A stretch of DNA of 63,176 nucleotides, counting the filler, from Porpidia crustulata (taxonomy: Eukaryota): NCBI GenBank assembly GCA_964255105.1. It is 7 parts of 7 records of this genome, joined end to end, with 100 filler letters (N's around TTAATTAATTAA, not from the genome) between each part and the next. Parts side by side here need not be neighbours in the genome. Positions count along the whole stretch, not along the records: positions 9,070 to 18,017 come from CAXUWE010001022.1; 6 more parts are not named here. The stretch is one strand, 5' to 3'. The notes beneath the pieces were generated by a model. That model did not search any database. It worked only from the letters and a program-made list of their open reading frames with translations, and was not told the origin of the DNA. This document shows positions 6,032-12,174 of the stretch, in pieces. The stretch's first letter is position 1. Each line of letters opens with the position of its first letter. Position numbers and translations under genes: made by a program.

Positions 6032-7984
6032 GATCGCTTCAAGGCTCGCACTCACATATGTAGTAAAAGTGAAGCGTGGAGTTTGGGCGACAGGCTTTGG
6101 GGTTTCGCGGGTATGATGGAATGGCAGTGGAGTTGATGATTCCGTTTTACGATATATCCTATTTTCCCGTGCATTATATTGCTCCTGTAAAATCCAGACT
6201 TGCTAGGGTACCTGTTCTCGATCTGTCCGCCCATTCAGTCTTAGTCTCATGTCCTGAAGACGTTACCTTCACATTAAACCCTCATCACTCAACACAACTC
6301 AAATCAAATCAAACCAAATATAGATCAATAATTTCCCTTGCTCCATGCCCACAATATAGAACACCTACTCGGCTTTGGCTTACTCTCTTACAAGTCTTTC
6401 ACTTTCCTCAAGGCATTCGACTCCTTTTGCCAACCTCACTTGGTGGGCTTCGGCTTCGGCTTAGCCCAAATGTCCCGCGTCGACCGTAGAAGTTTCGAGT
6501 CGCTCACTCCATCCTACACAAGTCTTTTGATGTAGTGAGTGGTCAACTGAGACTCTATGAAATTCAATGAGCTTCGGTCATTGTAGTTGAGACATCCGTG
6601 AGTGGTGGCGTGGCGATTGCCGGTTGGCCCTCGAATTGATCAGTCTGCCTATTTAGGTAAGTGATATCGTCCCTGAATCATCTACCTAGTTAGCTTGAAT
6701 GATCAACGGAATCTTTGATTATTAATCTGCACATTTGTGATTTGACCTGTTCAAGCACCATGTAAAATTCGTCGAGTGCAGTAGGGACAATGATGTCATC
6801 TTTCATGAGATCCAATACACAGTGTCATTGCATACACCCGAACGGGTTTCGACTGCTGTAGTAGAATGATATATAGTGAAGAGAACATTGCTGGAAAGCA
6901 GTGCTTGCAAGAGAATCATACATACAGGAATGTACCGAGACAATGTTGATGTTTACAGAACATAGAAAGATCAATTTGATCCGGGTATTACTGATGACAC
7001 GATATGGAAAGTTGATATCCACTACTCTATGCTCCCTAGTAAGAGAGTCGTTCTCTCCGGCTCCGTAGTAATAAGGATAGTAGACACGATAAGATAGTCG
7101 AAAGGGGCCCGATCTATCAGATTGATTCCTTCGTTCCGAGAGCTTGAACTTCCCAGTGGTGCTTGCGAGATTGTTTCATTCCCTTCATCCTCACGCACAC
7201 TATCTACTGCTTGCTGAAATGGTTGTCGTCTGGTGGTCCTGTCGTTGAAGTATCATCAAGATCGAAGAAGCATACAGCAGCGCTAAGATAAGTTATCTTA
7301 TCGTGAAATCTGCTAACCATCATTGTTACAGATCGATGTCCCTTCAGGCTTCAGGACGCTCACCTAAGGACCGGAGGCTTGGTCTGTTCTCAATCGTCAC
7401 AGATACATGGTAGATAGGACAACTACTCTTCAGAATATTATAGGCAGTCGACGGTGATCTCGAGGCTCTTGCGAAGAAGCAGCGAAATTTGACTGTCGAT
7501 CATCCGTAGGGTGTGCGTTGCCCGGTCGTACCTCGCTAAAAGTAAACATGCAAAGGGTGCATTTCATCCTTATCCAGTTGAACATCATTGGCTATCTTTG
7601 AATCCTGGCATTGAACTCCTGTATCGCATCAAATAACTTTGTCATTCACCGAATCCATCAAACTATCAGACATCAAGGCCTACGAGGAGCGTGCGGCTCT
7701 TAGTGGTGGAGAGTTCGGATTATTTGGGTGGTTGGTCGATAAGGTGGTTGGGGATATTGATCATAGCCTAAGCTTGCATTCCCGACTCCCTCACACCACA
7801 ATTTTCCTCTCTACACTCACTTGCCCGCCGTATAACAACGCTCTTTATCTGATTGTTCATCCGCGCCACCATTCCAAACATCTTTCAGTTGGAAGTGGCA
7901 GATCAGGTCTTGATCGTGAACCTCGAAAACCGCTGCTGCCGCAGTGACAACAGCATTCCTCGATCCTCCCCCACATTCCTCGCC

Positions 7985-8969
7985 ATGCATTTCTCACAAC
8001 CACCGACTCTTCTTTCCCTTCTCCAAATCATCCTATCGTCAACACACACCACGAGCGCAACACCACTACCTCAAGATCAATCAGCACTTGGATCGGAAAA
8101 TAGTACATTGGTGGAAAGGACTTGCGCAAACCCCTGTGGATTCGGAGGTCTATGCTGTGGAGCTCAACAAGCATGCTTAAACATCAACGGCCAACCCAAC
8201 TGTGGCGATGCCAGTCCAATAACAGCAGCAACCACATTTAACAATGCCGCGAACAATGGCCAATGGCAGCTCTACACCACCACCTTCACCGAGACCGACC
8301 TCATCGTCCGAACCTCCACCTACAGCTCGAATTTCGCCTCCGTGACAGCTCAAGTGGTAGCCACACCGACCACATTCATCGCGCCCGCAGTCACAACCCT
8401 CTCCTGCCGACTCGACCTCCAAGAAAGCCCCTGCGGCACCTTCTGCTGCGCTGCCGGCCAAGTCTGTCTTTACCAAGGCCAATGTGGAGCGGCAACCACC
8501 CTGGCCGACGCCAGCAGCTATTACTTCTCCGCGGTAACCAACACTGCCTCCGCCTTCATCCGTCCTACAAGTAACACTATCCAGACCATCACCTCGACCG
8601 GCACCCCCACCACCACCGTCCCCTTCAGCACGCCCACCTCTACCGGCAGCACCGCCGGCATGGCCGCATCTACCACCAACAACGGCCTCAGCGGCGGTGC
8701 CATCGCGGGCATCGTCATCGGCGTCATCGCGGGCATCCTCCTCCTCCTCATCTGCGCCTGCTTCTGCTTCAAGGGCCTCCTCGACAGGCTCCTCGCCCTG
8801 CTCGGCCTCCGCAGTAAACCGCGCCGCACCCGAGAAGAAACCTACATCGAAGAACGGCACTCGCGCCACGGCGCCGGTGGTGGAGGACGCACTTGGTATG
8901 GCGCGGCAAGACCGAACCGGGTCGATCGGCCGAAGAAGAGCGGGATAGGAGGCCTCTTAGGGGTTGGGG
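7985..8969 (+). CDS. Single-pass type I membrane protein with Cys-rich repeats and S/T stalk (Mid2/Wsc-like architecture), truncated at contig end
   Basis: Signal-like MHFSQPPTLLSLLQIIL, two CC-containing modules (CANPCGFGGLCC; SPCGTFCC), T/S-rich region, TM GLSGGAIAGIVIGVIAGILLLLICACFCF, basic cytoplasmic tail. Confidence 0.8.
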
Positions 8970-9069
8970 NNNNNNNNNNNNNNNNNNNNNNNNNNNNNNN
9001 NNNNNNNNNNNNNTTAATTAATTAANNNNNNNNNNNNNNNNNNNNNNNNNNNNNNNNNNNNNNNNNNNN
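8970..9069. other. Artificial contig linker (N44-TTAATTAATTAA-N44)
   Basis: 100-bp spacer with a six-frame stop cassette, repeated identically six times in the window. Confidence 0.99.
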
Positions 9070-9902
9070 GTGCCTTTGCTGAATGGGGTCTGGGGGAGCA
9101 TGGCGAGGATGGCTTTGGCGTAGGGGATTGCTAGGCGTTTGCCCTGGGGGGTGTCAGTTGTTTTCTGTAACTGTCCTTGTATCGGGAGTGGTGCGGAATG
9201 ATGCCGAAGGGGGTGCGTTCAGAGAGTTGTAATTTTATTTGGTAACCATAGTGGAGGTCTTCAAGACTAATCGATTGTGTGTTTTCTCATCATTGCAGAC
9301 AGCTTTGGAGCAGCTCGATCCCCACATACCTGTTGGATCCACTCATTTTCTACAGCCTTGAGGCGTATCACTGCCCCAACCCTACGCATCTCGATACCCA
9401 GTTCGGCACTTATCACTCTCACACTCCGTTTAAGCTCTGAATGCCTATACCACACTTCGTCCCTCAGTTCATTGCTCAGCACCGGCTGACTTCTAAATTG
9501 CCGGTTCATCGGGAATGGAACGAGATCATCCAGCGTTTCCTTCGGTATACTCTGTCCCAGCTCATAGTTCTTTTCCGATGATTTCGCATTGTCTTCACCT
9601 GGCAAGGGCGTGCTCTGCTCATCCTCTACTTTGGGATCCCTTTCGTTTGCGCGAATCAGACGCCCATTCTGGTCATAAGCGTTAATGTAATTTGTTGATC
9701 CAGGGAGGGGATTCCTAAAGACGGAACCAGGGCCTTCGAGCCATCGGAACATCAGAGCTCTTTGACGAGTGGCTGCTCGAGGGGTAGTTGAGAACTTCTT
9801 GGCAGGAACTTGGCAAAGACATTGGCACTGTGAGCTGGGGACGGGCAATATTATTGATGAGAGAGAAGATGGTAGGGACGGTTGTCGAACTCGCGGTGGC
9901 AT
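9070..9902 (-). CDS. MRPS35: Mitochondrial small-subunit ribosomal protein mS45 (MRPS35/Bot1 family), 3' truncated
   Basis: PFPMNRQFRSQPVLSNELRDEVW...SVRVISAELGIEMRRVGAVIRLK...EWIQQ, then an intron at about 9143-9329, then GKRLAIPYAKAILAMLP. Mitochondrial presequence-like N-terminus. Confidence 0.85.
9214..9297 (-). ncRNA. Intronic box C/D snoRNA with two LSU rRNA guides
   Basis: Minus strand: box C ATGATGA (9293-9287), guide TCGATTAGTC then putative D' TTGA, guide AAATTACAACTC then box D CTGA (9222-9219), short TGC/GCA terminal stem. Guides are complementary to the conserved LSU rRNA segments GACUAAUCGA and GAGUUGUAAUUU (rRNA sequences recalled from memory). Confidence 0.85.
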
Positions 9903-10759: not shown

Positions 10760-11705
10760 CTAGTTATTTGATTGGCTGTTGAGGATCCTGAGAATGGCAA
10801 GGAAGAGATTGATAATATCCAAATAGAGAGAGATTGCCGCGGCTATCTCTTCCTCGACGTGATAGTGTCGTAAGACGAGTTGGGTGTCCACCAAGATGTA
10901 TGCACTGAAAATCAATGCAGCTACTCCCCCATATATCAGTTCGACCATGCTGTTTTTAGGGAAAAAGGCCGCCATGAATCCAAATAGGATCAGTGCCCAA
11001 AGGGTTGTAAAAAGGTATGGTGCCCACGACGTAAAATCGTACTTTGTTTGGCACGCAAAGAGGGTCAAAGCAACGAATATGCCTGCTGTGAGGATGAGTG
11101 CTTCGAGGACAATCATGGATTCATAAAATGATACGATGACGGATATCGAATATGCTTCCAGCGCAGTGAAACCACTGAGGAACAGTAAGTTCGTAGGATA
11201 GGATTTCCGCTTCCAGAAAGTCAGGAGCATGAATCCGATGGCCCCGAAGAACGATATCCACATCACCCAAGCATGTGATTGGATCCAGGTCTTGTAGGAG
11301 TGGTTGAAGTATGAAATTGAGCTGACTGCCATGGTCGCAAGAATTTGCACAGTCCTGTAGAAGTTAGCTTCGTGCTTTCAGAGTCAGAGAATCCAAAATA
11401 ATGAAGAACTTACAATATTGCGTAGACCTTACGGATGAATTGCATTCGAATCGGTAAGGTGGCTTCTGCGACAGAGCCGCCGAACTGCAGAATCGTCAGC
11501 TTACTGTTCATTAATGTCTCAACAAAGGCATCAATTTACGTACCTTGAAGTCATCAGGAATGTTGTCATCTTCGCCTCTTGGTGCACCCAGTAGACCTTC
11601 GTTCGCATGCGCTTCGGCTTGGTAGGATGGGGGTGCTTGGGTGTAGCTGGGCTCCTCAAAAGAATCGCGTTGTGGTGCTGGCTGATATCTCATGTTCGCT
11701 GCCAT
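10760..11705 (-). CDS. BXI1: Bax inhibitor-1 / TMBIM family membrane protein
   Basis: 3 exons: MAANMRYQPAPQ...DDNIPDDFK|FGGSVAEATLPIRMQFIRKVYAIL|TVQILAT...LVDTQLVL...EEEIAAAISLYLDIINLFLAILRIL. Multiple TM helices. Confidence 0.93.
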
Positions 11706-12174
11706 TTCTTTGAATACTCTATGCTACGCCTTGATCTGAGATATGTTAACGTTGATGAGTTATATGAAAGAAGGATACGGAATAGGTAGACTGAGTCAAA
11801 TCTGACGTCTTGGTTCCTCCGAATACGGTTAGAGTGCTCTATAGACATGTGACTCTTTTGCCCCGTGAAACGGTGTGCACCTGGTTTGCTTAGACTTAGT
11901 TTTATTGTGTATCACAGCGCTTTCGATTTTGGCTTCTCTACTTTGTAAGATATAATCTCGTCATTCTGATACAATCCCAGGCCAGCAGATGTACCGTGCT
12001 TTCACGCTCATTAGGATCTACTGGGCGCAGGATCAAATGAAAGAACATTCAAGGGGATATCTATGACTCGCTTGAAGCAGTGAAATGAAATCTCCGTAGT
12101 CCTTCTGGTCCTTACTTGTTACCCACTACCAGCAGCAGTGCTTGAATAATTCGAATCTTTCTGAAAACACCAAA

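Follow-up and report, generated by a model that had tools for sequence, protein, structure and literature searches.

The whole stretch of DNA that we analysed (63,176 nt, from Porpidia crustulata; the window) carries on its minus strand, at 9297-9214, a box C/D snoRNA of which all the elements were found by reading the sequence. We hold it very likely that this is an intron-encoded snoRNA of the fungal CD39 family, with a D' guide directed to A917 of the large-subunit (LSU) rRNA and a lineage-specific D guide directed to U146 (both in yeast numbering), and with methylation predicted. The assignment to CD39 rests on the target, on the intronic context and on the homologues that we define below, the published CD39 snoRNAs being compared by their description. 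The snoRNA is a genuine, conserved box C/D guide RNA, and its elements as read in the DNA are as follows.

9214..9297, minus strand: box C/D snoRNA, very likely of the CD39 family, about 84 nt with its terminal stem, found with a sequence model of nine homologues
9287..9293, minus strand: box C, AUGAUGA, read directly; ATGATGA is invariant in 9/9 homologues
9263..9274, minus strand: D' antisense element UCGAUUAGUCUU, 12 nt complementary to LSU AAGACUAAUCGA, in the AAGA register
9274-9265, minus strand: UCGAUUAGUC, the D' guide as bounded by UUGA, read directly
9258..9261, minus strand: probable D' box, AAGA; AAGAC is invariant in the window and in 9/9 homologues
9264-9261, minus strand: UUGA, the alternative D' box of the initial annotation, read directly
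9243..9249, minus strand: probable C' box, AUGGUUA (RUGGUUA in the family); TGGTTA is invariant in 9/9 homologues
9224..9235, minus strand: D antisense element AAAUUACAACUC, 12 nt complementary to LSU GAGUUGUAAUUU
9219..9222, minus strand: box D, CUGA, read directly; the alignments of 5/5 contigs from the sequencing runs X2 and X3 extend to 9219
9297-9295 with 9216-9214, minus strand: terminal stem of 3 bp, UGC with GCA, also present in the minimum free energy fold

A box C of the RUGAUGA type, a CUGA box D and a terminal stem, although a short one, are thus present together, and antisense elements of at least 10 nt lie next to boxes D and D' (12 nt at box D and 12 nt at AAGA). The sequence GAAGAC is located directly 3' of UCGAUUAGUCUU on the minus strand, and AUGGUUA starts 8 nt past AAGA; this degenerate motif probably serves as the C' box. 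We also considered AUGGUU as an extra pairing with the rRNA downstream of the D' target (AACCAU), and rejected it: this rRNA position varies between the rDNA loci (CCAT, CCTT, CCGT or CTAT), leaving about 4 bp. The fold of the snoRNA was no more stable than that of shuffled sequence (z +0.91), and a lack of extra fold stability is usual for C/D snoRNAs.

The snoRNA is located in an intron of a gene for a mitochondrial ribosomal protein, as the initial annotation had proposed when it described a long intron of an MRPS35-like gene. The parts of this host gene are given below.

9330..9902, minus strand: exon 1 of the host gene, 191 aa, Bot1p/mS45 (MRPS35-like), Pfam PF12298 with an E-value of 1.1e-20
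9144..9329, minus strand: host intron, 186 nt, with the 5' splice site GTATGT at 9329-9324, the branch site ACTGAC at 9158-9153 and the 3' splice site CAG ending at 9144
9071..9143, minus strand: start of exon 2, matched by tblastn to exon 2 of two metagenomic homologues, L060 and L070

Exon 1 covers positions 2-65 of the 172 positions of the PF12298 (Bot1p) profile, which we take to be that of the family holding the fungal mitoribosomal protein mS45/MRPS35. The reading frame runs from exon 1 (..WIQQ) into exon 2 (GKRLAIPYAKAIL..), where it matches exon 2 of the homologues until a scaffold gap (8971-9070, N) breaks it off. The 3' half of the terminal stem ends at 9214, 60 nt upstream of the branch adenine (9154). 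The host intron is about three times longer than the introns of the neighbouring gene, 186 nt versus 59 nt for both of the neighbouring introns examined. The search for relatives of the host protein gave 254 homologues, and PF12298 was present in all of the best 120 of them. Among these best 120 of 254, all 18 homologues that bear the name of an organism come from lichen-forming fungi, with 52-63% identity, and the other homologues reach 75-85%. The named genera include Xylographa, Circinaria, Teloschistes and Lobaria, which we place in the Lecanoromycetes from general knowledge.

Several observations were made on the surroundings of the host gene. The gap at 8971-9070 consists of a TTAATTAATTAA linker with a run of N on either side, and it also truncates the 3' end of a plus-strand ORF for a Ser/Thr-rich membrane protein (7853-8970). 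The neighbouring gene, at 10760-11704 on the minus strand, has two 59-nt introns with the signals GTACGT and GTAAGT, GCTGAC and GCTAAC, and CAG; its product contains the motif ..IRMQFIRKVYAIL.. and presumably resembles the Bax-inhibitor/TMBIM family. A C/D-like element is present at 11748-11810 on the plus strand (UUGAUGA, UGAGUCAAAU and CUGA), with a 10-nt complement to the small-subunit (SSU) rRNA sequence AUUUGACUCA. It is antisense to the neighbouring minus-strand gene and located a short way upstream of its start codon, outside the visible introns. We rejected it as a second snoRNA, its best Rfam match being SNORD30 with 17.9 bits and an E-value of 4.4, and it is probably a chance resemblance.

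Homologues of the snoRNA were sought by a scan of metagenomes with the pattern TGATGA-N16-28-TCGATTAGTCTT-N35-65-CTGA, which returned 27 loci. Nine of these were clear homologues (L055, L056, L060, L065, L066, L068, L070, L075 and L076) and the other 18 were rejected as unrelated chance matches. The 12-mer TCGATTAGTCTT is fixed in the pattern, so its conservation among the nine homologues is partly built in; the first spacer was set to 16-28 nt versus 12 nt in the window, so the closest relatives of the snoRNA of the window were probably missed. The nine homologues share UUCGAUUAGUCUU(G/U)AAGAC, RUGGUUA, box C and box D; in the sequences compared here, 75-86 nt are spanned from box C to box D. 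The stems of the homologues, terminal or external, have diverged in sequence but retain their pairing, as in L056, L065 and L076. A sequence-only model built from the nine homologues, with the window left out, gave a single match in the 63-kb window, at 9297-9219, with 35.5 bits and an E-value of 4.3e-10. Together with the boxes as read and with the presence of the targets in fungal LSU loci, this match upholds the earlier description of the element as a true box C/D snoRNA, two stretches of which are complementary to rRNA.

Comparison of the host contexts showed that, in the window and in seven of the nine homologues, the snoRNA is located in one and the same intron of the Bot1p gene, which splits the Pfam profile at positions 65-68. 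The position was established by tblastn with the protein of the window for L060, L068, L070 and L075 (4 of the 27 loci matched), by Pfam on both exons for L056 and L076, and by reading the translation for L066, which is close to L056. A comparison of orthologous introns had been proposed in the initial annotation, and its outcome was favourable for the boxes and for the D' guide, which are kept. The contig of L076 has 38% GC and a TACTAAC branch site, and it looks like a sequence from a yeast-like source. In L055 and L065 the host intron does not belong to the Bot1p gene: the snoRNA of L055 follows a PHD-finger-like ORF, and a Pfam search of the ORFs flanking L065 gave no match upstream and only a sub-threshold RAM match downstream. 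These two contexts suggest that the snoRNA has occasionally moved to a new host.

Three sequencing runs were available for comparison: X1 contains the whole stretch and may be the source of the window, and X2 and X3 are runs of other organisms from the same study, whose contigs were aligned at 80% likeness. The two contigs of X2 and the three of X3 all matched only the segment from 9219 to 9274-9298, which spans box D up to the D' guide or up to box C, with no flanking intron, and their unaligned continuations read ATGATGA, GTGATGA or GGATGAG at the position of box C. One contig of X3 additionally matched, at a distance of 226 nt, a 30-nt piece of exon 1 of the host, and is therefore from the same gene. 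Because all five alignments run through the D guide up to box D, it is suggested that these relatives may hold the exact 12-nt D guide, the alignments being given without any mismatches close to their ends.

The rRNA targets were examined in fungal rDNA obtained by scanning species-representative prokaryote genomes for an exact match to the NL1 primer; the at least 51 fungal LSU rDNA loci thus obtained (L001-L051) are contaminants of bacterial assemblies and thus stand in for the rDNA of the fungus itself. That fungal LSU rDNA contigs occur in at least 51 bacterial assemblies or MAGs is also an observation on eukaryotic contamination. The target of the D guide, GAGTTGTAATTT, was present in 20 of the 51 loci listed, and most of the remaining loci carried GAATTGTAGTCT (21/51 of the loci listed). 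The target of the D' guide, GACTAATCGA, was present in 15 of the 16 listed loci that reach 900 nt or more beyond NL1; the exception, L041, lacks it within 1,132 nt. For the yeast numbering we used L016, with the start of NL1 set to position 41; this gave the right base at 10/10 known yeast methylation sites and placed AAGACUAAUCGA at LSU 914-925.

We then compared these matches with chance. The reference for the shuffles was L046, which comprises the SSU, the ITS, the 5.8S and a 2,178-nt part of the LSU, so that alternative targets were compared in the LSU up to its last ~1,200 nt. Shuffles of the D' guide reached 10 nt in 305 of 20,000 cases and 12 nt in 18 of 20,000. The window contains 481 CTGA sites on the two strands, and a 12-nt match was found only at the snoRNA at 9297-9214. 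Seven CTGA sites have a match of at least 10 nt, and a RUGAUGA within 130 nt upstream was present only at this same snoRNA. The duplex energy of the D' guide was -17.0 kcal/mol.

The D+5 rule, applied from the canonical CUGA, gives U146 (yeast numbering), the first U of GAG-U-UG, as the predicted 2'-O-methylation site of the D guide, and this residue had been read correctly in the initial annotation. Conservation of the D guide in orthologous introns, by contrast with that of the boxes, was not borne out: AAAUUACAACUC was absent from all nine metagenomic homologues. The D guide of L055:1501-1582 and L060:1501-1585(-) is UGCGAGCCUC, with a 10-nt match to the LSU at about 800-813 nt past the NL1 site, that of L070:1501-1577(-) is GUCAAUUCCU, with a 10-nt match to SSU AGGAAUUGAC, and the D region of L075 has a 9-nt match in one rDNA locus only. 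The D regions of the other five homologues had no match of at least 9 nt in the reference rDNA. Since the D guides of the nine homologues all differ from that of the window, the D guide is lineage-specific. To judge from these ten sequences, the second antisense element of the CD39 family is replaced lineage by lineage. The D guide of N. crassa CD39 is in turn annotated to 26S-Am375, with an 11/0 match, in the table of Liu 2009 (PMC2780460). This turnover follows the pattern of the families called 'predominantly single-guide' in the main text of Canzler 2018 (PMC5824354), and it resembles that of the single-guide families with lineage-specific targets described there (snR87/CD_10 and snR53/CD_11), in which one guide is conserved and the other gains a clade-specific rRNA target.

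It is also conceivable, although we judge it rather unlikely, that the snoRNA has a single working guide, the D' guide, and that the 12-nt complement next to box D, arisen by chance or in decay, directs no methylation. The differences between the D regions of the window and of all nine homologues, five of which have no match of at least 9 nt, so that the region evolves freely, are in keeping with this, as are the A-U pairs that make up 9 of the 12 pairs of the duplex and the classification of most fungal C/D families as single-guide in the main text of Canzler 2018 (PMC5824354). However, only 44 of 20,000 shuffles of the D guide gave a 12-nt perfect complement anchored at positions 1-3 in L046, and the match in the window begins at position 2 from the canonical CUGA. 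The duplex energy of the D guide, -16.5 kcal/mol, is inside the range of accepted targets (-11.5 to -23) given in the available text of Canzler 2018, and all five related contigs of X2 and X3 align through the D region to box D, whereas the flanking intron does not align. A D guide with a predicted methylation site at U146 remains the preferred reading, and this guide is probably a lineage-specific addition in the lichen-forming Lecanoromycetes, as far as the compared sequences indicate.

The lineage-specific second guide has probably not been described previously. The N. crassa table of Liu 2009 and the A. fumigatus snoRNA list, in the parts available, contain no target within the 5'-most ~350 nt of the LSU, and the A. 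fumigatus table as available contains no snoRNA with either target. The novel Candida targets given by name in the main text of Canzler 2018 (PMC5824354) are LSU-G364, LSU-G1431 and LSU-C2809; for the CD39 family, this main text mentions neither the U146 target nor the other D guides found here (those of L055/L060 to the LSU and of L070 to the SSU), and its supplementary tables may list U146. In the literature on rRNA O-methylation, snoRNA and Candida, we found no fungal methylation map that covers the A917 and U146 sites.

For the D' guide, the choice of the D' box decides which nucleotide is targeted. AAGAC is invariant in 10/10 sequences (the window and the nine homologues), while the G of UUGA is changed to U in L076 (UUUA), where AAGA is kept. 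The pairing with the rRNA continues through the UU, right up to AAGA, over 12 nt in the window, 13 nt in most homologues and 14 nt in L076; the match is 12 nt and not 13 nt in the window because of the A at 9275. In K-turn geometry, moreover, pairing would be possible between the AA of AAGA and the two U residues of UGGUUA, which is conserved. The spacer between AAGA and RUGGUUA is 7-9 nt in seven of the ten sequences, 12 nt in L076 and 15 nt in L060; in L060:1501-1585(-), the 15-nt spacer between D' and C' appears to be partly self-complementary (AUAC..GUAU). Because AAGA, and not UUGA, is conserved as the D' box, the probable target is A917, and not A920.

In the initial annotation, UUGA had served as the D' box, which makes yeast A920, the A that directly follows GACU, the methylated residue. 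UUGA does fit the CUGA consensus at 3/4 positions versus 2/4 for AAGA, and it is present in the window and in eight of the nine homologues, but we consider this register quite improbable and its site probably 3 nt off. Besides the UUUA of L076 with its 14-nt pairing, one contig of X2 differs at both 9262 and 9263, within UUGA. The AAGA register is also favoured because the 13/0 match and the Am897 site given in Table 1 of Liu 2009 fit this register only. On the sequences compared, the D' box is therefore probably AAGA and the target probably the A of GAC, yeast A917, which corresponds to N. crassa Am897.

This equivalence was derived from the sites in the available part of Liu 2009 (PMC2780460), where Gm785, Am797, Am856 and Gm888 are assigned to the snoRNAs of yeast G805, A817, A876 and G908; the constant offset of -20 at these four sites makes N. 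crassa Am897 equal to yeast A917. In Table 1 of the same paper, N. crassa CD39 is a 73-nt, intronic snoRNA whose D' guide has a 13/0 match to 26S-Am897, with 'snR83' as its homologue in S. pombe. The snoRNA of the window is likewise intron-encoded (in the 186-nt Bot1p intron) and of similar size, and its D' guide UCGAUUAGUCUU, which pairs with yeast 914-925, has in common with CD39 the pairing with LSU AAGACUAAUCGAA and, in the AAGA register, the site A917, or N. crassa A897. It differs from N. crassa CD39 in its D' match (12 nt versus 13 nt) and in its D guide, which is directed to U146 in the 5' region of the LSU instead of Am375.

The available text of PMC5033589 gives CD39 as present in Candida and absent from S. 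cerevisiae, in line with the suspicion in the initial annotation that the two sites are missing from the S. cerevisiae methylation set. A supplementary table of Donovan et al. 2016 places Candida CD39 in an 'intron within orf19.3559', in synteny, and orf19.3559 is grouped with ribosomal proteins in the accessible part of one paper. According to the main text of Canzler 2018 (PMC5824354), a novel C. albicans snoRNA shares its target-binding region with Nc_CD_39, and the snoStrip family CD_39 is presumably the same as this Nc_CD_39. The proposed restriction to filamentous fungi does not hold, given the Candida reports, the S. pombe 'snR83' and the low-GC, yeast-like L076.

A scan of the whole window with Rfam gave no match at the gathering threshold. 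The Rfam models snR79 (RF01184) and snR61/Z1/Z11 (RF00476) were rejected, with 17.1 bits each versus gathering thresholds of 55 and 45 and E-values of 2.8 and 3.4, respectively; they share with the snoRNA a generic layout of box C, UGAAGA and box D, but their guide sequences are unrelated. CD39 is a family without an Rfam model. The Rfam check raised earlier thus found nothing at gathering level, and the family is instead known from the literature, so that the snoRNA is not novel as a family: its D' guide, LSU target and intronic location fit CD39. That it belongs to a new family merely converging on the CD39 target region is highly improbable, for although CD39 is known here by description and Rfam offered only the generic similarities above, the 12-13-nt guide, the predicted site and the placement in an intron are the same, the length is similar (73 nt in N. 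crassa versus 75-86 nt from box C to box D here), and the homologues span yeast-like and Pezizomycotina-like contigs in the same host intron, matching the distribution reported for Candida and Neurospora.

The snoRNA would be transcribed within the nuclear pre-mRNA of mS45/Bot1p and would assemble with the core snoRNP proteins; splicing and debranching, followed by trimming with exonucleases, would then set free an RNA of about 80 nt, as the general biology of intronic snoRNAs would lead us to expect. Fibrillarin may then methylate A917 and, less surely, U146, if established snoRNA biology applies here. The maintenance of the intron position together with its snoRNA resembles that of RPL7/snR59 and NOG2/snR191, which is kept across distant fungi in the available text of Lim et al. 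2021. The host differs, since it encodes a component of the mitochondrial ribosome, whereas the RPL7- and NOG2-type hosts of Lim et al. 2021 are ribosome-related and cytosolic. The available text of Lim 2021 contains no occurrence of MRPS35, CD39 or 'mitochondrial ribosomal', and that of Diao 2014 mentions neither CD39 nor a Bot1p host. The suggestion that the host may couple the modification of cytosolic rRNA to the expression of a mitoribosome gene is compatible with the conserved host intron. We put forward tentatively, as somewhat less likely than not, the broader proposal that CD39 in a lineage of lichen fungi gained a working U146 guide and that the mS45 intron has been kept since before the split of yeasts and filamentous ascomycetes, which would tie the modifier to mitoribosome transcription.

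The value of these results is mainly one of annotation, in that standard pipelines miss the CD39 family, which is without an Rfam model. The snoRNA is an ordinary member of a known family, and the general understanding of snoRNAs is unchanged by it. It shows a snoRNA-bearing intron held at one position of mS45 across distant ascomycetes, and it provides a clear case of second-guide replacement by lineage, with four different rRNA-complementary D guides among ten sequences. U146 is located in the 5' D1 region, in which the N. crassa and A. fumigatus lists and the Candida target names, in the parts of these sources available, have no site; if U146 is methylated, it would add one clade-specific site to the map of fungal rRNA modification.
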